Shown here piece by piece: positions 222 through 42,996 of a stretch of 42,996 bases of DNA. This stretch comes from a virus: the IMG/VR virus record IMGVR_UViG_3300029131_000011, positions 1 through 42,996 of that record, one strand, 5' to 3'. The stretch's first letter is position 1; every line of letters starts with the position of its first letter. The position numbers were made by a program, and so were the translations under genes. The notes beneath the pieces are model-generated. The model had not been told where the DNA came from, did not search any database, and was given only the letters and a program-made list of their open reading frames with translations.

Positions 222-672
222 GGCGCGCTACCTTTCTCTTGAACCACGCCCACAGATTACGCCACGGGTGGGATTCTGCGTAATTGGCGCGCTCACACTC
301 AACAGCGGCGCGATTCTTCAAGTTAACTCTTTCGCACCATAGTTGTTTATTCTCAATGACAGAACGCGTCAATTCTGCATTTGCCCGCCCAAGCGCCGAC
401 TCAGTGTCAGCAAGCTTATTTCGCAGCGTATCCGCGTTCGCTTTCTGCTTTGCGATCACGTTCTCGCGGGTGATGGCCTCGCCGTGCATCTGGGTGAGCT
501 TTTCCGTCAGCGTGCCGATCTCTCCGCGCAGCTTTTCATTTTCCTCGGCCAGTTTTACGCCGGCCTTAAAATGTTCCGCCGCCTCGGCTTCCGCCGCTTC
601 CTGCCTTTCGGCGGCGTCCTCCACCATCTTCGCCATCTGGTCTTTGGTGTACTTCTTAATGTTAATGCTCAT
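214..672 (-). CDS. Coiled-coil early protein, function unknown
   Basis: 152-aa ORF rich in heptad-like E/A/K/L stretches. ATGA-type coupling with its neighbours. Confidence 0.7.
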   Translation of the reverse strand: MSINIKKYTKDQMAKMVEDAAERQEAAEAEAAEHFKAGVKLAEENEKLRGEIGTLTEKLTQMHGEAITRENVIAKQKANADTLRNKLADTESALGRANAELTRSVIENKQLWCERVNLKNRAAVECERANYAESHPWRNLWAWFKRKVARHE

Positions 673-1136
673 TCGGCCACCTCTTCCCCAACGATCATCC
701 AGTCATCAGCCAGCATGTCGGCCTGCGAGGCCAGCCAGCCGAGCTGTACGCCGGACGTGCCGACAAATGCAAGCGCTTTGTTTCCGATGGCCTCGTGCTT
801 GGCGTTAATTACCTCGTGCGCGGCGTTCTCGTAGCTGATACGCTCCGCAAGCTCGACGTACTGGTTCTTACCGTTCCAACCGCGGCGTGCGATCTTCATG
901 CCCTTCTTCGCTGCCTCGATAGCAAGTCCAAAGCTCAGCCCGTCAGTCGGTCGATACGCCTCTTCAAAAACCTGCTTCGGGCTGAAAGATTCGTATCCGT
1001 CAGGGTAGCGGACTTTGTAGCCGTCTTCCTCGCGCTCCATACTTCTCGGGATGGGCTGGGTCTTCTCGTAAACTTTTCCTCCCTTGCGGATAGCCGGTGC
1101 TGCCTCGATAAGTTTTGTCCCGATGTACTTTTTCAT
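669..1136 (-). CDS. DUF2829-domain protein (Tad2-like Thoeris anti-defence candidate) with an N-terminal GTK..A.P / GY.V.YPDGY.S.SPK..FE.AY domain
   Basis: ATG 1136 is preceded by AAAGGAA. The C-terminal half FGLAIEAAKKGMKIARRGWNGKNQYVEL....GWLASQADMLADDWMIV matches the DUF2829 signature (GWNGK, DlLAdDW). Confidence 0.75.
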   Translation of the reverse strand: MKKYIGTKLIEAAPAIRKGGKVYEKTQPIPRSMEREEDGYKVRYPDGYESFSPKQVFEEAYRPTDGLSFGLAIEAAKKGMKIARRGWNGKNQYVELAERISYENAAHEVINAKHEAIGNKALAFVGTSGVQLGWLASQADMLADDWMIVGEEVAE

Positions 1137-1252
1137 AGTAAAATTCCTTTCTTTTTCGCCCGCAGGCGTTATTTCATTCGTAGCTGTTCTTCCTGCCCCC
1201 GGTCGCTTACGATGCTCACGACCTTGCAATCGCCGCTTCTCGCTTGATGTAT

Positions 1253-1465
1253 TCATCCATTTTCCGCCCTCCTGTTCCATGCTTCGATTGCTTTTGCTTT
1301 GCTGGGCAGCCCAGATACTTTCATCTTCTTTGTGTGGAGGCCATCACCAGCCCTATATCTCCCACAACCGGCATCCCACCCAAAATCTGCTCTATCGTAG
1401 GTGTCGTACATATGGATAACGGTTGCAACTCCACCGCACTCAGGGCAGCGTTTCAATTCAGCCAT
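1253..1465 (-). CDS. Lar-family-like restriction alleviation protein
   Basis: 70 aa. N-terminus MAELKRCPECGG and C-terminus AKAIEAWNRRA resemble the Lar family pattern (LKPCPFCGG ... AIeAWNRRa). The second Cys pair is degenerate. Confidence 0.5.
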   Translation of the reverse strand: MAELKRCPECGGVATVIHMYDTYDRADFGWDAGCGRYRAGDGLHTKKMKVSGLPSKAKAIEAWNRRAENG

Positions 1466-3020: not shown

Positions 3021-3467
3021 CTAATGTAGCGCTTTCGCGGGGCGGCGAAAAATCACCACCATGCTTGGGAATGGGGCACTGTTCTTTTCTCCGCCGAACT
3101 TTAATCTCCCCCGCACGAAATTGATGGTTGCATATTTGTCGTTGTAGCAGTAATCGTGGAACCAAGCGGTATCCGTCCGCGCCGGAAGCAGCATCACAAC
3201 CGTTGCGTCTGATTCCTCGGCAGTTCGATGCGCTTTCTCTACCCACGCCCCAACGCCGCGTCCATATGGGGGATTGCACCACACAACGCCGTCCCAGGCC
3301 TGTTTCAGTCCGTCCATTTCCGGGGTGAAATAGCGTTCGCATTTCGCGTTTTCTGGCGTTGCGCAGGCATCCAGCGTAAATTGGAAGAGGTTGTTGAGGT
3401 CGTCAAAGAAGGCTTGCGGGGTCTCCCACATTTCAGATTTTGACGAAAACATTAAATCGTTGTTCAT
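3021..3467 (-). CDS. dam: Phage DNA N6-adenine methyltransferase (Dam family)
   Basis: WETPQAFFDDLN...FTLDACA...NAKC..YFT ... VWCNPPYGR ... LLPARTDTAWFH is the classic phage Dam (NPPY) pattern. ATGA overlap with the upstream gene. Confidence 0.85.
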   Translation of the reverse strand: MNNDLMFSSKSEMWETPQAFFDDLNNLFQFTLDACATPENAKCERYFTPEMDGLKQAWDGVVWCNPPYGRGVGAWVEKAHRTAEESDATVVMLLPARTDTAWFHDYCYNDKYATINFVRGRLKFGGEKNSAPFPSMVVIFRRPAKALH

Positions 3468-4168
3468 TGTCTCCCCTCACATTCCCTAATGTCTCCTCCC
3501 CATTGTTCCGCCATGGCTTTGGCGATACCGGGAAATGTTTTGCTTCTGGCTTTTGCCGTACGCGGGTCATTCCATCGCATAATCTTACCAGTTTCATCTT
3601 TTGCATAGTTTGCGCTTGCCCCCACACTGTATCCACCTGGCAAAATAATTCCTGCATCTACAATGTTTGTCGGTCGCAAAGCGGGTAAGCCTTTTAGCCA
3701 TAGGCAAGTCTTTTTTCTTGCGTGGTGCCCGAATTCATACGGCTGGATAATACAATCAGGCTTACGATAGTGTGTAGACATATATCCGACCGGATTTTCT
3801 ACCGCGATTTTACAAACGTCGGCATTTACAAAGGCCAAGAAAAACGCCGCAGCTTCTTCCCGCAACTGCAACCGTCTGACCGCCTTTTCGCCATATCTTT
3901 CCGTGTTAAACCAGCGATTCCCGGTAACAGTCAGGTATGTACACGGCGGGTGCGCGATCAGCAAGTCCCATTTGCCGACCTCATGCGTCTCCCCGTCCAT
4001 AGTGGTCACTTCGCCCCCCTCGATGGCCTTGAGCGCATCGCCTAAGATGTGCCACTCAGGATGCCCGCCGGACGGCTCCTGAATGTCGCAGGAATACGCC
4101 TCATACCCCAGTGCTCGGAACGCCTTGCACACTTCCTGCGATTCCTCACAGGCAACTAAAACTTTCAT
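3464..4168 (-). CDS. C5-cytosine-methyltransferase-like protein
   Basis: AHPPCTYLTVTG (PPC motif IV-like) and IAVENPVG (ENV motif VI-like). 234 aa. ATGA coupling on both sides. Confidence 0.6.
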   Translation of the reverse strand: MKVLVACEESQEVCKAFRALGYEAYSCDIQEPSGGHPEWHILGDALKAIEGGEVTTMDGETHEVGKWDLLIAHPPCTYLTVTGNRWFNTERYGEKAVRRLQLREEAAAFFLAFVNADVCKIAVENPVGYMSTHYRKPDCIIQPYEFGHHARKKTCLWLKGLPALRPTNIVDAGIILPGGYSVGASANYAKDETGKIMRWNDPRTAKARSKTFPGIAKAMAEQWGGDIRECEGRQ

Positions 4169-13492: not shown

Positions 13493-13885
13493 ATGAACAT
13501 TCAAGAAGTGTGCAGAATCCGTAAAGAAGAATTGAAACTGACCTATCAGGACATTTCCGACGCTTCCGGCGTGCCGCTGTCCACCGTGCAGAATTTCTTT
13601 TCCAAATTTTCCAAAGCCCCGTCCATTTATACCGTCGCGCCCATCTGCAAGACGCTGGGGATATCGCTTGATGAAGTGTTTGGAATTTCCGAACGGTTGA
13701 CGCCGACCGAGGAAACTTTGCAAGCGCGCAACGATGAGCTGGAACGCCACGTTGACGCGAAAGCGGACATGATCGAGATCATGCGGCGCGGAGTGCGTAT
13801 CCGAAACATTGTGATTGCTATAATGTTTGTCATTATCGTCTTGCTGGCCGCGTGGTGCTTGTACATTGATTGGAGGGGGATTTAA
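13493..13885 (+). CDS. Membrane-anchored HTH protein (N-terminal XRE-like HTH, coiled coil, C-terminal TM)
   Basis: ATG after AAGGTGG. LTYQDISDASGVPLSTVQNFFS HTH. C-terminal IVIAIMFVIIVLLAAWCLYI. TAATG overlap with the integrase gene. Confidence 0.75.
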   Translation: MNIQEVCRIRKEELKLTYQDISDASGVPLSTVQNFFSKFSKAPSIYTVAPICKTLGISLDEVFGISERLTPTEETLQARNDELERHVDAKADMIEIMRRGVRIRNIVIAIMFVIIVLLAAWCLYIDWRGI

Positions 13886-14898
13886 TGAAAATACCAAAAG
13901 CAAAACTACTACCGTCTGGCAACTGGAATGTCAGCGTCATGGTAGACGGAAAGCGTGTGTCCGTCACAGCGCCTACCAAAAGGCAGGCGGAGAATGAAGC
14001 TGCCGCATTGAAGTCCGGCGCAAAGTCTGCCGCTCGTGCGTCTGAGCGAACGGTCGGCGACGCTATTGACCGATACATTGACAGCAAGGACGCGATACTC
14101 TCCCCCTCCACCGTCAACGGGTACAGAAAACTCCGCAAGGTGGTTTTTCCGGAGCTGATGAGCGTTAAGTGCTCTGCGTTGACGCAGGATCGCGTGCAGC
14201 GTGCCGTGAATAAGATGGCACGAGAAAAGTCCCCTAAGTACGTCCGCAACGCTTACGGCTTATTTACTGCGGCAATGTCGGAGGAATGCCCGGATAAAGT
14301 GTTCCGTGTATCTTTGCCGCAGAAGGAAGCGCCCAAAATCAAAATACCTACCATGGAAGAAATCAGAACCTTACACGAAGACTGCAAGGGCGCAGACTTT
14401 GAATTGCCTTTCCTGCTGGCCGTCTGGCTCGGCCTCCGTACATCGGAGATTAGAGGTCTAACATGGGATTGTCTTGACGGCGATATATTAACGATCAGGC
14501 AAGCAATGGTAGACGGTGAGGACGGTCCGCAGCTCAAGCAGCCAAAAACTTACAGCGGCAACAGAAAGCTGAAAGTGCCGCCGTATATTATGGGGCTGAT
14601 TGAAGCAACACCGCGCACAGATGAGTATATTGTCCATGCAACCAGAAATGTCCTGTATAAGCATCTGCAACGCGCGTGTGCCCGCTGTGGAGTTTCGCCG
14701 TTCCGCTTTCACGACCTCCGGCATGTAAATGCGTCGGTCATGCTCAGGCTCAATGTCCCAGACAAATATGCAATGGAGCGCATGGGGCACTCTACAAACA
14801 ACATGCTAAAAAACGTATATCAGCACACGATGAATGATAAAGCCGTAGCAGTGGCAGATGCCGTTGACGGCTTTTTTGAATCCGAATTTCATCTGTAA
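13885..14898 (+). CDS. int: Tyrosine recombinase (phage integrase)
   Basis: ATG 13885 follows GGAGGGGG. LAVWLGLRTSEIRGLTW (catalytic Arg), FRFHDLRHVNAS (HxxR), GHSTNNMLKNVYQH (catalytic Tyr). Confidence 0.9.
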   Translation: MKIPKAKLLPSGNWNVSVMVDGKRVSVTAPTKRQAENEAAALKSGAKSAARASERTVGDAIDRYIDSKDAILSPSTVNGYRKLRKVVFPELMSVKCSALTQDRVQRAVNKMAREKSPKYVRNAYGLFTAAMSEECPDKVFRVSLPQKEAPKIKIPTMEEIRTLHEDCKGADFELPFLLAVWLGLRTSEIRGLTWDCLDGDILTIRQAMVDGEDGPQLKQPKTYSGNRKLKVPPYIMGLIEATPRTDEYIVHATRNVLYKHLQRACARCGVSPFRFHDLRHVNASVMLRLNVPDKYAMERMGHSTNNMLKNVYQHTMNDKAVAVADAVDGFFESEFHL

Positions 14899-17481: not shown

Positions 17482-17574
17482 TGATATGCACGGATAGGGT
17501 AGCTCCCGACAAGCCGAAAGTCCTATCGGTTTCCGTGCAATACAAAATTTAGGACTGCACGAAAGGACAGTGCT

Positions 17575-37639: not shown

Positions 37640-39070
37640 TCACTCAATCTCTTCTTCCGGCTCTTTTGTCATGGCCTGCATCTTCGGAAGCTCCGCCTTT
37701 GCGGTTTCCTCGTCCTCGTTTTTGTACGTCATGCGCATTTCATAATCGTTGAGGATCCCAGCAGACAAAAGCTGCATATCGCGCGCAAACTCAGCGTCTT
37801 TGTCCTGGAAAATACTGTCGTCAAAATCAATACTAATTTCAATATTTTCATCCAGTCCGGCGTTCATGGTCGTATTGCCCAGTCGGAGGAGAACCCTACA
37901 AAGTTCAACAAGCACCTGCTCCAAGATGATCTGGTGCTTTCCTCGCGTCTTTGCAAGCTCACTGTGCGTACTGATAACCTGCGTCGCAGTCGCCATTACG
38001 GCTTGGTCGATCTGATAAAAGTTCGTGCCAAAGCCGCACTTGCTCCCCAAGATATTAAGCGCGAACTGAACCCCGACACTTAACTTATCGGAGTTAAGTG
38101 TCATGTCGATTGGCTGAATAACCGCCCCATCGCTTACATCTTCTGGCATAACGTAGTACACAAGATCGTTTTCATCAAACGCCGGTGTACCATCAAGAAA
38201 TTTACTCGCCGCAGGCTTAACCATAATGCGTTTTTTGCCCATCACGAACTCATTGATGTAAGCATCATAGGCAATATCGGCACCTTCGAGTGCATCGATA
38301 GCATTGGCATAAACCGAAATGCCGGTTGGAAGCAAATAGTTGAAGTTATTCGCAATGTTAAGTCGGTCAATGACAAATTGACGCTTATCGCTTCCGGTAT
38401 GTACAACAGGGGGGATGCGCTCAAAGCCCTTAACATTGGTCAGTGCTTCGTCTGCAAGTTGCTCATTATCATACCGATAAATGCGGTTCTCAATGACGTA
38501 TTCGCCGCCATCCTCTTTTCTATGGATTTGCAGATAGAGGTAATCGCGCCCGCCCCTTGTAATTACAGAGGAAAACGCGCACTCGCTGATATATCCGTTC
38601 TGCCATGCCAGCGGGTAGATATTTTCGATAGTCACATAGTCCAGCACAATGCCGGATGTATTGCCGGGTACGATCTCGCCGCTCTCGTTGACCTCCTGCC
38701 CCACTACGCGGGGAATGTATGCCACCGTGCCAAGCGCAGACTTCATTTCCTGCATCTCATTCGCCTTAACAGCAAAATTGTTCTCCGTCAAGATGCGGTC
38801 AATAAATTCCTGCTCCTTATTCCCTTCAAGCGTTATCTGCACTTTTTCGTTCATGAGCAGATTCGCCCAATCCTCGCACAGTTTCTTTCCCATTCCAAGG
38901 GAATACCGCTTGCAGTTGACCATGCTTTCACCGTTACGGACGCGGTAATTGTGGAAGCCCTTTACATTTCCCTGATACCAGCTTTTCCACTCCGCAACCT
39001 TGCTGTAAAACGATTCGGGGATCGTGGTATAGCCAAGCTCGTTAAGTTTTAAGATAACTGCATTGCTCAT
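37640..39070 (-). CDS. Portal protein
   Basis: 476 aa. ATGA overlap with the TerL stop. Acidic C-terminus. Synteny. Confidence 0.85.
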   Translation of the reverse strand: MSNAVILKLNELGYTTIPESFYSKVAEWKSWYQGNVKGFHNYRVRNGESMVNCKRYSLGMGKKLCEDWANLLMNEKVQITLEGNKEQEFIDRILTENNFAVKANEMQEMKSALGTVAYIPRVVGQEVNESGEIVPGNTSGIVLDYVTIENIYPLAWQNGYISECAFSSVITRGGRDYLYLQIHRKEDGGEYVIENRIYRYDNEQLADEALTNVKGFERIPPVVHTGSDKRQFVIDRLNIANNFNYLLPTGISVYANAIDALEGADIAYDAYINEFVMGKKRIMVKPAASKFLDGTPAFDENDLVYYVMPEDVSDGAVIQPIDMTLNSDKLSVGVQFALNILGSKCGFGTNFYQIDQAVMATATQVISTHSELAKTRGKHQIILEQVLVELCRVLLRLGNTTMNAGLDENIEISIDFDDSIFQDKDAEFARDMQLLSAGILNDYEMRMTYKNEDEETAKAELPKMQAMTKEPEEEIE

Positions 39071-40305
39071 GCGATAACTCCCATCCGGCGAGAAATCCGC
39101 TCTAAAGCGTATCTTGTGGCATCAATCAAATGGTTATTTGCATCAGGATACCCGCTGATGATGTCGCCGTCTTTATTCCGTTCGTATTCGTAATTTACAA
39201 ACTCTTTATACGCGTTTGGTGTCCGGCGGCGGTCAATGACGATCTTGCGCCTCTGTAGCCACTTCATGCCGTAGTCCACGGAGCCGGGGCCTTTGATAGC
39301 CTCCTTTGCCGGAAGGCCAAGCGCCCGATAATCCGCAGTGCTCTTCGGCTCTGCGCTGTCACACGTGATGTACGCGTCGCCATATCCGCACCCTTTGATA
39401 ATTCCGCCGCTCTCCTCGTTTGTCAGCTTATTTTTATAAATCTCGTCAATAAAGTAGATTGTCTCCCGCGCCCGGTCGTAGTGTAGCCGGATAAACGCAA
39501 ATGGATCTGGATACCATCCCCAGTCAACACCTTGGTATATCTGGTCGAAGCTCCCGATCTCCTTGTCCGTAATCTCTCGCAGCTCCAAATTTTCAAACAC
39601 ATTTCCACCCGTGCCGACCGGAATGCCAAGATACTCGTGCTGATATGCACGCTCGTCTGTCTCTTTGAGGTGTTCCGCTTCTGCAAGAAACTGTTCTCCC
39701 AGCCATTCAGGCGGTGCTTGCAGATATGTTGACTTGTGGCACAAGCGGTCATCCCGTTCTTCCAAGCTATCCTTGTTTGCCCAGTTGTCGCGCGAAATTG
39801 GTGGGTTATAGCTTTCAAAATTCCAAAACACCGAGCCGCCGCGCATGGTCGACTGCAAAATGTTTCGGATTTCTGCGCGTCCGGCAAACTGGTCTTTTTC
39901 TTCAAAGTGCGTTACGGCAATGTAGCCAAACGGCACCTTGATAGACTTGATCTTCATGGGATCGTCAGCACCCCGAAACATGATCTTCTGCCCGGTAGGC
40001 TTATAAATCAGCTCCATCGGGGATACCTTTGCTTCCCAATACGCCGCCATGCCCAGTTCACCGATTGCCCAGATATACTGCGCGTATACGCTGTCACGAA
40101 TGGTATTTGCCACCTTACGCAGCACCAGCGCGTGTGTACCCGGATTGTTTATCAGCAGCAGGGGGACGAGTACAGACACCGTGGAGGATTTTAGTGAGCC
40201 GCGCCCACCGCTGAAATCGTAGTGCGTGTGACCGTGGTGGAACACGTCATGCGCCACGGCGTAGAACGCAGAGCCGATTTTTTCAGACAGGCGAATGTCA
40301 GACAT
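39067..40305 (-). CDS. terL: Terminase large subunit
   Basis: ATG 40305 (the ORF-track start is a TTG one codon upstream). Walker A-like FSGGRGSLKSS. C-terminal nuclease region with D residues. Confidence 0.9.
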   Translation of the reverse strand: MSDIRLSEKIGSAFYAVAHDVFHHGHTHYDFSGGRGSLKSSTVSVLVPLLLINNPGTHALVLRKVANTIRDSVYAQYIWAIGELGMAAYWEAKVSPMELIYKPTGQKIMFRGADDPMKIKSIKVPFGYIAVTHFEEKDQFAGRAEIRNILQSTMRGGSVFWNFESYNPPISRDNWANKDSLEERDDRLCHKSTYLQAPPEWLGEQFLAEAEHLKETDERAYQHEYLGIPVGTGGNVFENLELREITDKEIGSFDQIYQGVDWGWYPDPFAFIRLHYDRARETIYFIDEIYKNKLTNEESGGIIKGCGYGDAYITCDSAEPKSTADYRALGLPAKEAIKGPGSVDYGMKWLQRRKIVIDRRRTPNAYKEFVNYEYERNKDGDIISGYPDANNHLIDATRYALERISRRMGVIA

Positions 40306-40624
40306 CAATTATCACCTTGACACCCTCTGTGTTGATGTTCTGCTCCACAATATCCTTCTGGTCGAGGTACTGTTTCCCCAGCCAAATGGCCATATTCGCG
40401 TTCTTTTCAGCCAATCGCCACTGACTTCTCCGCAGCGAAATTTTCCCAGCTCCGCGCTTTTGCTTAAATACTTCGGAAAAACTGGCATGATAGGTGCGTT
40501 TACACCAACTATCCAGTGTTTTATCGGTCACACCAAACCAGCCACAGATTTCCTCAAGCGTGCATTGCAGGCCGCAGAGGTTCTCGAACTGCTTCTGGTC
40601 TATTTCCTTTCTTGGCCTTGCCAT
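40298..40624 (-). CDS. terS: Terminase small subunit (HTH type)
   Basis: MARPRKEIDQKQFENLCGLQCTLEEICGWFGVTDKTLDSWCK. SD AAGGAGG. Overlaps the terL start. Confidence 0.8.
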   Translation of the reverse strand: MARPRKEIDQKQFENLCGLQCTLEEICGWFGVTDKTLDSWCKRTYHASFSEVFKQKRGAGKISLRRSQWRLAEKNANMAIWLGKQYLDQKDIVEQNINTEGVKVIIDV

Positions 40625-40730
40625 ACGCGCCCTCCTTTCTCTGCTGGCGTTTGATAAACTTCTCCATATCCCGCTTTAGGTGCGGGCTGCTTGTTTTGGC
40701 GATGATCGCCCGCGCTTCTTCAATCGTCAT
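40554..40730 (-). CDS. Possible small ORF (58 aa) overlapping the terS start
   Basis: MTIEEARAIIAKTSSPHLKRDMEKFIKRQQRKEG... The 3' third overlaps terS in another frame, so it is doubtful. Confidence 0.25.
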   Translation of the reverse strand: MTIEEARAIIAKTSSPHLKRDMEKFIKRQQRKEGAYGKAKKGNRPEAVREPLRPAMHA

Positions 40731-41913
40731 TCAGCAGCACCGCTTTCTTCCCCGTAAACTTCTCCCAACGGTCAACAATGACATCGGCATACTTTTGGTC
40801 AAACTCCATGCAGTACGCGTGTCTTCCGTTCTGCTCCGCTGCCATGATCGTTGTGCCGGAGCCAGCGAACAGGTCAAGTACATTCTCACCCGGCTTACTG
40901 GAGCACTGCATCTGGTAATCAAACAACTTAATCGGCTTCATGGTCGGATGCTCCGCAGATTTGACAGGCTTATCGAAATTCAACACCGTTGTCTGTCTGC
41001 GATTCTTGAAGAAGTAGTGCTTCTTACCCTCCGTCCACCCGTACAGGCAAGGCTCGTGATCGTCCTCTTCAATCTCACTTTCACCGTACAGGCAAGGTTC
41101 ATGTTTCCACTGGAAATCCTGTCTCCCCATTACGAGGGAATTCTTTACCCAAATCAGGCACTGCCGGACACGCAGCATTGCGTCTTTACACGCACCGCGA
41201 AAGTTATACCCTTCACTGTCTGCGTGCCAGATGTAGAACGGAGCACCGGGCTTCATGACCAGCGCCGCATTGGAGAATGCATCCGTCAGGAAACGCCTGA
41301 AGGCCGTATCCTCCATATTGTCGTTCTTAATCTTCCCGGCGGTGCCCTGATAGTCCACATTGTACGGGGGGTCTGTGAGCAGCAAATCCATTTGTGCCCC
41401 CCCCACGAGCTTCTGTACATCTGTCAAAGACGTGCTGTCTCCGCACATAAGGCGATGGTCTCCAAGCTGGTACACATCGCCAAGTTTGCTCTTTGGCTCT
41501 GCCGGTAAAACGGGATCGTAATTGTCCTCTACCACTGACGTGTCGAGTTCATCACGCAGACCCCAATCAAAGTCAAAAGCAGACAAGTCAAGCCCCGGCA
41601 GCTCATCAGCCAGCAGGTCAAAGTCCCAATCGCTCTCGTTGCTCTTGTTATCTACCAGCCGCAGGGCGTTCACCTGCTCCGGTGTCAGATCGTCCACGCA
41701 GACGCAAGGCACTTCTTCCATGCCCAGTTTCTTCGCCGCCAGAGCGCGGCAATGCCCGATTACGATCACGCCGTCACGATCAATCACAATCGGCTGTACA
41801 AATCCGTACTGCTTGATGCTCTCCGCAACGTTGTTGATTTGCCGCTTATCATGCTTTTTTGCGTTTGCGGAATACGGCACAATATCCGCAAGCCGCCGCT
41901 TTGTGATTTCCAT
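40720..41913 (-). CDS. ParB-like nuclease domain fused to an N6-adenine/N4-cytosine DNA methyltransferase
   Basis: The N-terminus IVPYSANAKKHDKRQINNVAESIKQYGFVQPIVI..DGVIVIGHCR is ParB-like. LLLTDPPYNVDYQG (DPPY motif). Motif I-like VLDLFAGSGTT near the C-terminus. Confidence 0.85.
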   Translation of the reverse strand: MEITKRRLADIVPYSANAKKHDKRQINNVAESIKQYGFVQPIVIDRDGVIVIGHCRALAAKKLGMEEVPCVCVDDLTPEQVNALRLVDNKSNESDWDFDLLADELPGLDLSAFDFDWGLRDELDTSVVEDNYDPVLPAEPKSKLGDVYQLGDHRLMCGDSTSLTDVQKLVGGAQMDLLLTDPPYNVDYQGTAGKIKNDNMEDTAFRRFLTDAFSNAALVMKPGAPFYIWHADSEGYNFRGACKDAMLRVRQCLIWVKNSLVMGRQDFQWKHEPCLYGESEIEEDDHEPCLYGWTEGKKHYFFKNRRQTTVLNFDKPVKSAEHPTMKPIKLFDYQMQCSSKPGENVLDLFAGSGTTIMAAEQNGRHAYCMEFDQKYADVIVDRWEKFTGKKAVLLNDD

Positions 41914-41939
41914 GCCATCCTCCTGTTTTGCTACTAGCC

Positions 41940-42581
41940 CCCACCCCTTGGCCTTACATAGCAGACTTTACCCGCCCCGAAGGGCTTCAACGCCGCCCAC
42001 ATTGGGCGTTATCCTTTTCACAGGTCCCGGCATTGCAATCTGTTTGAATTGCTTACACAGCGGCCTAATCATACGATTGCCGCCACCACGCCGCATCCAT
42101 TAAACGCCTCGGCACTCGCGCAGATTGTAGCAATGCCGGTATCCCACGGAACTTTTCAGCCCTGCGCCGGTATGTCGGTCGCATCCGTTTCTTCATCCAT
42201 AGGCCGGAGCCAGCAAAATAATGATTATTCGGCCTGCCGCTTTCATACAGCGCACAGGCAAGCCCCTTGTAGCGGTCTTACCCTTCCACGGTGCCGCAAT
42301 GCGGTAGCATACATCTGGTACGGCATTGCAGTCCTGCCCTGCTTTAGCGCTTCAGGGAAAGCCCCCGTCACTCGCTGTGGCCTCCCCTTACGGGGCACCT
42401 ATGCCGCATATCCCGCGTTTACGGATCTGGCACTGAAGCCCCCGCATTCTATGTAACGCTCGATTCAACGCGGGCAAATCGAACGGCCCTTCGCGGAGCC
42501 ACGCCCTGCTGACGGGACGCTGCGCTTGCCAAGTTCGGGCTTGCCGCAATGTCGCCCTTGTACGCTGTCAGCTTTGGGATT
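41940..42581 (-). ncRNA. Candidate large structured ncRNA (ROOL/GOLLD-class-like context); boundaries approximate
   Basis: 668-nt gap (41914..42581) with no minus-strand ORF of 60 aa or more. Many stable hairpins, with minus-strand-specific tetraloops (cUUCGg 41974..41985, GUAA 42384..42395). Long-range helix 42027..42042 / 42121..42139. Directly downstream of a tRNA. Confidence 0.55.
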
Positions 42582-42658
42582 TGGTGCAGATGGCTGGACT
42601 TGAACCAGCGACCTTTTCATTATTTTCGAAATGCTCTTGCCTACTGAGCTACATCTGC
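42582..42658 (-). tRNA. tRNA-like gene with encoded CCA and a non-canonical anticodon loop (AAAAUAA); identity undetermined
   Basis: The minus strand reads gcagatg-ta-gctc-agtaggcaa-gagc-a-tttcg-aaaataa-tgaaa-aggtc-gctgg-ttcaagt-ccagc-catctgc-a-cca. Acceptor, D and T arms are canonical. There is no U at position 33. Confidence 0.7.
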
Positions 42659-42806
42659 ATGGTGCGGGGGCGGCGTGAAAAAGATGAAAAGCACCGCCCC
42701 CCGCTATGGCGCAGGAGGTAAACGCCATAAATGAGAGAACCGCAAAGGCTTTTACACCTCTGCGATTCTATTATCTCATAAGCAAATGGCTTTTTAAGGC
42801 CAACTT

Positions 42807-42996
42807 TTAGTCATCGAGCAGCCCGTAGTTCCGTGCGACGCACTTGATAAAATCCGTATGCCAGCGTCTCGCCGTCCGGTCGGAACAGTTGACTGCCATC
42901 GCCGCCCCTTCGAGCGTGTGGGTCTTGTCCCAGAACACAAGGCGGATAAATTTTAAGCGCTCTTCTCCGTCTTGCATTAACTTTGTTTCGCTCACC
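42807..42996 (-). CDS. C-terminal part of the junction-spanning late transcriptional activator (sigma-70 region-4-like HTH; RinA/ArpU-like position)
   Basis: ...GEERLKFIRLVFWDKTHTLEGAAMAVNCSDRTARRWHTDFIKCVARNYGLLDD. HTH-like C-terminus. Located immediately upstream of the tRNA, ncRNA and packaging genes. Confidence 0.6.
   Translation of the reverse strand, partial: VSETKLMQDGEERLKFIRLVFWDKTHTLEGAAMAVNCSDRTARRWHTDFIKCVARNYGLLDD
42898..42996. repeat. Terminal overlap copy 2 (identical to 1..99)
   Basis: Same 99-mer as 1..99. Consistent with circular assembly overlap. Confidence 0.95.

Follow-up and report, generated by a model that had tools for sequence, protein, structure and literature searches.

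Conserved RNA cassettes, including a tRNA-shaped module, in a tRNA island of a gut phage genome

Between a late-type regulator gene and the packaging operon of a phage genome, IMG/VR record IMGVR_UViG_3300029131_000011, lies a gap of 668 nucleotides (nt; positions 41914-42581) that adjoins a tRNA-like gene. The window analysed is the whole record of 42,996 nt. In this study, we examine the gap region and find it to be an assembly of separately conserved cassettes. Two of these, modules A and CE, are structured RNAs that are each conserved in their own right and show compensatory base changes; in outline A resembles a tRNA, without a tRNA T-loop or anticodon loop. Bases 1-99 of the window are identical to bases 42898-42996, and the window is therefore a complete phage genome, circular or terminally redundant, of 42,897 base pairs (bp). 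It encodes terminase, portal, capsid and integrase, and its minus strand carries almost all of the genes. Upstream of the region stands a gene for a 103-amino-acid (aa) protein that matches the PHROGs family phrog_36 “transcriptional regulator” and crosses the circle junction. Downstream, on the minus strand, the first gene encodes a protein with ParB_N and N6/N4 DNA methyltransferase domains (40720-41913, assigned from its open reading frame (ORF) and domains), with its AGGAGG ribosome-binding site at 41924-41919 and its ATG at 41913-41911. It is followed by the small terminase subunit (40298-40624), the large terminase subunit (39067-40308) and an SPP1-type portal (37640-39070), and past the portal by genes for a minor capsid protein and a capsid protein. 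As the first-pass annotation of this DNA had reported, there is no minus-strand ORF of at least 60 aa that is fully contained in 41914-42581. Read along the minus strand, the cassettes follow in the order tRNA-like gene (42658-42582), module D (42581-42408), module A (42407-42316), module CE (42315-42019), a small hairpin (42008-41994) and module B (41985-41926), and then the AGGAGG and the ATG.

Homologues were collected as 80 viral contigs through the methyltransferase protein, plus about 120 loci through a DNA pattern of module A; they are mostly close kin and come largely from a few human-gut metagenome data sets. A BLAST search of GenBank phages returned only three unannotated “Bacteriophage sp.” records, from human faeces, each of which covers another part of the region.

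Module A is a 92-nt cloverleaf on the minus strand (42316-42407), defined by sharp borders, covariation and a covariance model. Its borders are exact, in that the flanks diverge immediately outside the first and the last base. P1 is a 7-bp acceptor-like stem (GCGGCAU/AUGCCGU). P2 has 3+4 bp, an internal loop and a GUAA tetraloop of the GNRA class; it is the hairpin at 42384-42395 that the first-pass annotation had picked out for its GNRA loop, and it covaries. P3 consists of 4+5 bp around a purine-rich internal loop, AGUGA opposite AAG (5x3), and ends in a variable tip, and P4 has 4 bp and a 7-nt loop, GGCAGGA, that is conserved. At the 3' end a single unpaired A precedes the CCA (A-CCA). The minimum free energy (MFE) fold of the single sequence gives the same four-way junction, with a z-score of -1.51 as compared to +0.19 for the antisense strand, and RNAalifold on 50 distinct copies gives it again.

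The alignment bears out this structure. In it 97.3% of the cells are paired, as compared to 34-46% when the partners are slid by one to three columns, and 13 pairs show double changes against 2.0±1.1 in shuffles, none of 500 shuffles reaching as high. Double changes occur in six of the seven P1 pairs. The tips of P3 stay paired while they vary (GGGG-ACUUU-CCCU, GCC-GAAUGAU-GGC and GGCGG-CGUU-CCGCC, and also GAGAAUGU), and since the tip varies in both length and sequence, it is not an anticodon loop. Divergent copies that carry acceptor stems GGAACAU/AUGUUCC or GCAACAU/AUGUUGC, and P4 stems GCGG/CCGC or GCCG/CGGC, keep every helix and the ACCA. The alignment contains 65 G.U cells and 14 A.C cells, an excess from which it follows that the minus strand of the window is the sense strand of A, in line with the direction in which the region had first been read.

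With tRNA (RF00005), A shares the order of the four helices in the cloverleaf, the 7-bp closing stem, the discriminator base, the 3' CCA and a pyrimidine at position -1, which is U in 56 and C in 22 of the 78 distinct contexts. An NCCA end is present in 38 of 50 unique copies. The likeness extends to the location within a tRNA array, to the strand (the tRNAs that neighbour A are always on its strand) and to the slot, which in relatives is held by a tRNA. The differences lie in the arms: the ‘T’ loop is GGCAGGA and not UUCRANY, the ‘D’ arm, a hairpin of 7 bp that contains an internal loop, ends in the GNRA tetraloop and has no D-loop GG, and the ‘anticodon’ arm has 9 bp, the 5x3 internal loop and the variable tip in place of a 7-nt anticodon loop on a 5-bp stem. 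ARAGORN run on the window reported only the tRNA at 42582-42658 and did not recognise A, and the Rfam tRNA model gave no match on 42316-42407 even at E<=10. The pyrimidine at -1, the acceptor-like stem and the RCCA would be compatible with processing by RNase P and by tRNA 3' enzymes. A cannot decode, and it would most likely serve as a tRNA-shaped decoy or a protein-binding RNA.

Scored with its covariance model, the window copy of A reaches 115.5 bits and is the only one that the model finds in the window. The module is present in at least 120 viral contigs. In a set of one genome per bacterial species it was matched on four contigs (two of Oscillospiraceae, one of Clostridiales and one labelled Rhodospirillaceae, the last not confirmed by the covariance model), and so small a number beside the viral one indicates that A is a phage element and not a host gene. 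A hairpin ribozyme or other self-cleaving RNA was considered for A, and a kink-turn for P3, and both were rejected: the loop sequences are unfit on inspection and Rfam gives no match.

Module CE is a two-domain RNA of about 297 nt (42315-42019, minus strand), recognised by alignment and covariation. Domain C (42144-42315) starts on the base after the CCA of A and holds an invariant 46-nt block, AACGGAUGCGACCGACAUACCGGCGCAGGGCUGAAAAGUUCCGUGG; domain E (42019-42143) comprises a closing helix (42139-42121 with 42042-42027), a hairpin (42083-42060) and a trailing CCUGUG (42024-42019). The two domains occur together in 25 of the 27 copies in the first locus set, the other two being cut by the end of the locus, and a scan with an invariant 30-mer of C finds CE in at least 119 viral contigs. 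Where the 5' end could be typed, C starts right after ACCA or GCCA in 99 of 101 copies, and the element in front of it is a tRNA, a degenerate tRNA-like element or A.

The closing helix of E, which the first-pass annotation had described as a 16-bp long-range pairing, exists in seven unrelated sequence versions across the relatives, all of which pair. It was tested by per-sequence folds and by duplexes, in which cognate arms reach -27.2 kcal/mol as compared to -16.0 kcal/mol for non-cognate arms (n=2446); RNAalifold on a MAFFT alignment missed the helix, with its covarying arms misaligned. The bulged hairpin at 42083-42060, likewise noted before, shows double compensatory changes at four pairs, and E alone has a z-score of -2.27 relative to shuffles. 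Domain C contains a helix with G-C to U-A changes (alignment pair 59/86), and the CCRYGG at its 5' end has two candidate partners, UUCCGUGG or the CUGUG after E. Two derivations of this module were tried and set aside. Short repeats (GCGAGUG.C and CUGCAAUGCCG) had raised the idea that E is a paralogue of A, and the covariance model of A gives no significant second match in the window. A reduced RNase P RNA was considered for CE, in which GAAAAGUUCC and GGGUAAGA resemble CR-I and CR-III; the two strands of its long-range helix come in the reverse order, and no RNase P model matches.

All six helices listed in the first-pass annotation can pair at their coordinates, and conservation beyond chance holds for four of them. 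The remaining two find no such backing. A 7-bp helix (42296-42302 with 42323-42329) would join the 3' acceptor strand of A to the start of C, competes with P1 and cannot form where a tRNA replaces A, and a 6-bp helix (42201-42206 with 42230-42235) is not kept in the homologues.

Compared with the 80 methyltransferase contigs, the region matches in blocks, and the coverage profile over the enlarged locus set rises and falls abruptly at the block borders. Between A and B, the spacer comes in discrete lengths across phages (5, 40, 118, about 165 and about 330 nt, some longer), which indicates that whole cassettes are present or absent; in 15 loci 5 nt separate A from B. The relative L013 lacks precisely D and A and otherwise equals the window, with both breakpoints at CCA ends, that of the tRNA and that of A. 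In these comparisons the gain and loss of cassettes falls exactly at NCCA ends, and CE, as well as D in the copies examined, starts exactly past the NCCA of a tRNA or tRNA-like element. Related loci (for example L098, L117, L008, L084 and L118) hold more conserved non-coding cassettes in the same slot, between A and B or upstream of A, for which Rfam gave no match in the loci scanned (L098, L117, L008, L118). These extra modules include one of about 165 nt that begins UCCCGGCCAGCGGGCGAGGAAGCG and has the closing stem UCCCGGC/GCCGGGA, a 118-nt module and a 40-nt hairpin module; in L084 and L100 a block of several hundred nt stands upstream of A.

Module D is a conserved spacer RNA of 174 nt (42408-42581, minus strand) that starts right past the CCA of the tRNA and abuts the first base of A. 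Its alignment with six relatives displays an invariant core and variable hairpins. On one side it is bordered by a tRNA-type CCA, and on the other by the 5' end of A or, in relatives with a tRNA in the place of A, by that of the tRNA.

The adjoining tRNA-like gene (42582-42658, minus strand), which ends in CCA, is real, as the first-pass annotation held: ARAGORN types it as tRNA-Ile(aat) and the Rfam tRNA model scores it at 59.3 bits. Its anticodon loop, AAAAUAA, is non-standard, with A at positions 33 and 34. In its relatives (for example L009, L008 and L088) the acceptor, D and T arms are nearly unchanged, and the anticodon arm carries CACAUAA, CCAAUAA or CAAAUAA, or is replaced by a loop that contains CCAGGAGGUAUG, or is deleted. 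The CCAGGAGGUAUG loop places a ribosome-binding-site-like AGGAGG beside an AUG. The tRNAs of related arrays (L058, L107, L113, L124, L177 and others) often escape typing by ARAGORN or carry anticodons with A34 (aat, atc, aaa, aga), a rarity in bacteria. By their sequences, the degenerate tRNAs look like tRNA-shaped elements retained for a role other than decoding.

Upstream of the tRNA, a leader (42662-42769, minus strand) conserved in L001, L013 and L084 forms two G+C-rich terminator-like hairpins, at 42769-42736 and 42702-42662. The second of these, of 13 bp, is followed by ACCA here and not in L013. A consensus scan places a promoter-like site, TTAAAA-16 nt-GATAAT with a TG extension (42770-42797, minus strand), just downstream of the late-regulator gene; its -10 part sits inside a block conserved in relatives, and 42797-42770 is a weak candidate for the start of an array transcript. 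The scan for terminator-like sites on the minus strand finds none from 42581 to 41914.

Between CE and B, the small hairpin CGCCC-AAUGU-GGGCG (41994-42008, minus strand) keeps its stem in relatives and differs in its loop. Module B (41926-41985, minus strand) is a near-invariant 60-nt leader made up of a GCCC-loop-GGGC hairpin, GGGUAAAG and CCAAGGGGUGGGGGCURGUAGCAAAA. Among the collected loci it is found in 115 places, directly before the ribosome-binding site of the first gene of the packaging operon, and the genes downstream of it vary, being the ParB-methyltransferase, the small terminase subunit or small ORFs. The present genome has one copy of B. The GCCC/GGGC stem is kept and its loop varies (UUCG, CUCG, GUUA, AAUU, AUUU), so that of the C(UUCG)G hairpin at 41974-41985 that the first-pass annotation had emphasised, the stem is conserved and the UUCG loop is not. 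With a folding z-score of +0.06, B carries no thermodynamic signal. Within it TGCTATGTA resembles an extended -10 element, which is lost in a divergent B variant, and a promoter scan finds no sigma-70 promoter in B. A cos site was also considered for B and rejected, as the ends of the methyltransferase contigs fall at varied distances from the methyltransferase gene and not at B. We infer that B is a separate cis element of the packaging operon, acting as a promoter or operator or as a signal in the 5' untranslated region.

The first-pass annotation had proposed that the region is an RNA of the ROOL or GOLLD kind. Its reading of the niche, a phage tRNA island of the type in which these RNAs occur, is correct, and this is context that does not define membership; the identity fails. 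Neither the ROOL model (ROOL RNAs are about 580 nt long) nor the GOLLD model matches at the gathering score, at E<=10 or in 17 related loci. That annotation had staked its proposal on a covariance-model match and on covariation among homologues; there is no match, but the covariation is clear. At the gathering score, Rfam 15 finds only the tRNA in the region (and int-alpA elsewhere in the window) and only tRNAs in the equivalent arrays of the 17 related loci; at E<=10 with permissive filters, run on 1.3 kb and on 411 nt, it finds nothing meaningful besides the tRNA. Modules A, CE, D and B are thus absent from Rfam 15. Some of them may already be among the 10,006 structured-RNA candidates that a 2023 catalogue took from IMG/VR and RNA viruses (PMC10690425); like the window, that catalogue draws on IMG/VR gut phages, and it includes many tRNA-like candidates and candidates upstream of terminase genes. 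The non-coding RNA array of UG27 reverse transcriptases (bioRxiv 10.64898/2026.09.22.753630) was tried and rejected: a scan of 38 larger ORFs of the window reveals no reverse-transcriptase domain, and the region is flanked by a regulator and the ParB-methyltransferase instead of by a UG27 reverse transcriptase and its accessory genes.

Several other observations were made in passing. The int-alpA RNA match (17487-17553, plus strand; 40.4 bits against a gathering score of 35.8) is flanked by two unannotated ORFs, and a tyrosine integrase gene (13870-14898, plus strand) lies about 2.6 kb upstream of it. The Rfam SpF41 small RNA is matched elsewhere in two related loci, L001 (586-692, minus strand) and L168 (12824-12930, plus strand), at 53.3 bits against a gathering score of 52. 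A second DNA methyltransferase, of phrog_757 (3464-4168, minus strand), brings the genome total to two and belongs to the early region. A 203-aa protein (669-1280, minus strand) contains a domain resembling Tad2 (Thoeris anti-defence 2; E 3.7e-19), so that the phage carries counter-defence cargo; nothing ties this protein to module A.

The features of the region suggest that this phage tRNA island gives rise to a polycistronic precursor, punctuated by tRNA-like elements through which stable structured RNAs are set free, an account that we hold to be probable and by no means secure. The array would be transcribed as one precursor, perhaps from 42797-42770, and transcription would continue into the late genes, there being no terminator-like site from the tRNA to the methyltransferase gene. 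Each tRNA-like element would be cleaved by RNase P at its 5' end, next to a -1 base that is always U or C, and its NCCA, or a site close by, would be the target of the tRNA 3'-end machinery. D, A and CE would thereby be released as discrete stable RNAs. By their niche, CE and D could be analogues of the ROOL/GOLLD-type phage RNAs.

Several points weigh against this account. What is proposed for transcription, for cleavage by RNase P and for product stability is in each case drawn from sequence. As a whole, the 668 nt fold no better than their dinucleotide shuffles (MFE z-scores of -0.67 for the minus and -0.69 for the plus strand), and the promoter-like scan returned one site where 0.8 would be expected in shuffles, a weak result. 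About one quarter of the unique A copies are without the CCA. The P4 loop GGCAGGA departs from the T-loop consensus and tRNA detectors miss A, so its recognition by tRNA enzymes is a plausible step and not a firm one. In Bacillus tRNA maturation an encoded CCA blocks RNase Z; a clean cut after the discriminator base is therefore not assured, and an element and its trailer, such as A and CE, may stay joined. Finally, the homologues are closely related, so that part of the covariation rests on few independent events.

Among the alternatives, the cassettes might act in cis only, as a long regulatory leader of the packaging operon (by attenuation, antitermination, or the formation or stabilisation of the mRNA 5' end) with no trans-acting product. 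We regard this as unlikely. In its favour, the region is located after the phrog_36 regulator and before the gene that opens the packaging operon, the promoter-like site is succeeded by terminator-like hairpins with no terminator before the methyltransferase gene, and the invariant B, with A 5 nt upstream of it in 15 loci, stands right before the ribosome-binding site of the first gene. However, A, CE and D are optional and interchangeable among phages that share B and the late genes, which is unexpected for an essential cis regulator, and the conserved internal loops, the GNRA loop and the NCCA tail exceed the needs of a processing or attenuation signal. It is scarcely probable that the conserved elements act as DNA, whether as a pac or cos site, an origin or recombination sites for cassette exchange: the compensatory changes of A and CE, together with the asymmetry of G.U over A.C cells, point to single-stranded RNA of one sense, and the contig ends near the methyltransferase gene are scattered and not at B. 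The precise borders of the cassettes would suit such a role, and for B alone, which is single-copy, invariant, devoid of a folding signal and placed at the head of the packaging operon, it could hold.

A functionless graveyard of decaying tRNA genes and junk spacers would account for the damaged, replaced or deleted anticodon arms of the tRNA at 42658-42582 and its relatives, and for the many neighbouring tRNAs that have unusual A34 anticodons or cannot be typed. We consider it very improbable, given that A and CE, each over at least 119 contigs, retain 90-97% conservation between diverging flanks, that compensatory changes preserve their helices, and that the acceptor, D and T arms of the degenerate tRNA-like elements are intact, a sign of selective retention and not of decay. 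That the stretch is spanned by a single ornate RNA of about 670 nt, a relative or an analogue of ROOL and GOLLD, as first proposed, now seems extremely improbable. Although the stretch is non-coding, has conserved helices and occupies the niche of RNAs of which one, GOLLD, can have tRNAs covalently linked to it, its parts are separated or reordered in relatives, A standing next to B and CE following ordinary tRNAs, its borders coincide with tRNA-type ends, its overall z-score is that of shuffled sequence and the ROOL and GOLLD models do not match. Instead of a single large multi-pseudoknot RNA as in ROOL, there are independent cassettes of 60 to about 297 nt in varied combinations. A decayed or recoded protein-coding gene can practically be dismissed. 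Two ORFs touch the region, one of 135 aa on the plus strand inside it (42049-42456) and one of 87 aa on the minus strand (42465-42728) that overlaps it by 117 nt; both are judged spurious, because the cassettes that they cross come and go independently in relatives, and the latter runs through the tRNA gene. TAA, TAG and TGA stops are each present in all three minus frames, which rules out reassignment of TAG or TGA, and the homologues contain indels of 1-2 nt that are not multiples of three. Homologues have no protein gene at the equivalent position; the first-pass annotation had named an intact one as the sign of a decayed pseudogene.

If the tRNA-island account is correct, an extension of it may be entertained that we consider speculative and doubtful. 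Gut Oscillospiraceae phages would carry a shuffling toolkit of hitherto uncatalogued RNAs, joined covalently to tRNA-shaped handles, in which A would be a true L-shaped tRNA decoy that gains or retains a CCA end and blocks a host tRNA-directed defence or enzyme, and CE and D would be RNA-only machines analogous to ROOL and GOLLD that use the linked tRNA-like element for processing or delivery. Irrespective of function, phage tRNA islands gain at least two well-supported and widespread families, A and CE, that are much smaller than ROOL and GOLLD, and an array grammar in which a tRNA-like element is followed by a structured trailer, this unit repeats, and an invariant leader closes the series. 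Being small, with sharp ends and many natural variants, A and CE lend themselves to structural work, to assays with RNase P and to genetics. As the degenerate tRNA-like elements suggest, phages may keep some of their “tRNA genes” for the sake of processing or mimicry and not of decoding, which bears on how the tRNA content of phages is read.

According to bioRxiv 10.1101/2024.12.08.627333, the phages and prophages that encode ROOL and GOLLD often have them close to tRNA islands; a GOLLD RNA may be joined covalently to tRNAs or follow just downstream of one, and GOLLD has a conserved 3' region and many examples longer than 800 nt. The window resembles them in having non-coding phage RNAs beside a tRNA island and in having CE joined to a tRNA-type 3' end, as GOLLD is to tRNAs. 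It differs in that its modules, of 92 to about 297 nt, have no sequence or structure match to either family and form a modular series and not one RNA. The multimer-forming palindromic loops of ROOL and GOLLD find no support in the inverted-repeat test of module C, whose AU-rich palindrome had been considered as a dimerisation site of this kind and was rejected, the arms averaging 3.6 nt as compared to 3.3 nt in shuffles.

The tRNA cluster of phage T4 contains two small stable RNAs (rnaC/rnaD, ‘species 1 and 2’) that are co-transcribed with it and matured by the tRNA-processing machinery. The likeness to the present region lies in stable RNAs other than tRNAs inside a phage tRNA cluster, and the differences in the host, Escherichia coli as against Oscillospiraceae, and in a fixed cluster as against shuffling cassettes. 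In the vtRNA-pre-miRNA units of MHV68, a tRNA-shaped, non-decoding element is joined to another RNA and is cut by tRNA-processing enzymes. A further parallel is mascRNA at the 3' end of MALAT1, where a tRNA-like element acts as punctuation for RNase P and RNase Z and yields a CCA-tailed mimic (PMC11693755 and PMC8457004). By analogy, A may be set beside the mascRNA and vtRNA elements as a non-decoding, tRNA-shaped element joined to another RNA, and would be processed in a like way. Those systems are eukaryotic, and A keeps much less of the tRNA consensus, having neither the T-loop nor the D-loop signature. A and CE thus belong with the RNAs of phage tRNA islands and with the tRNA mimics.

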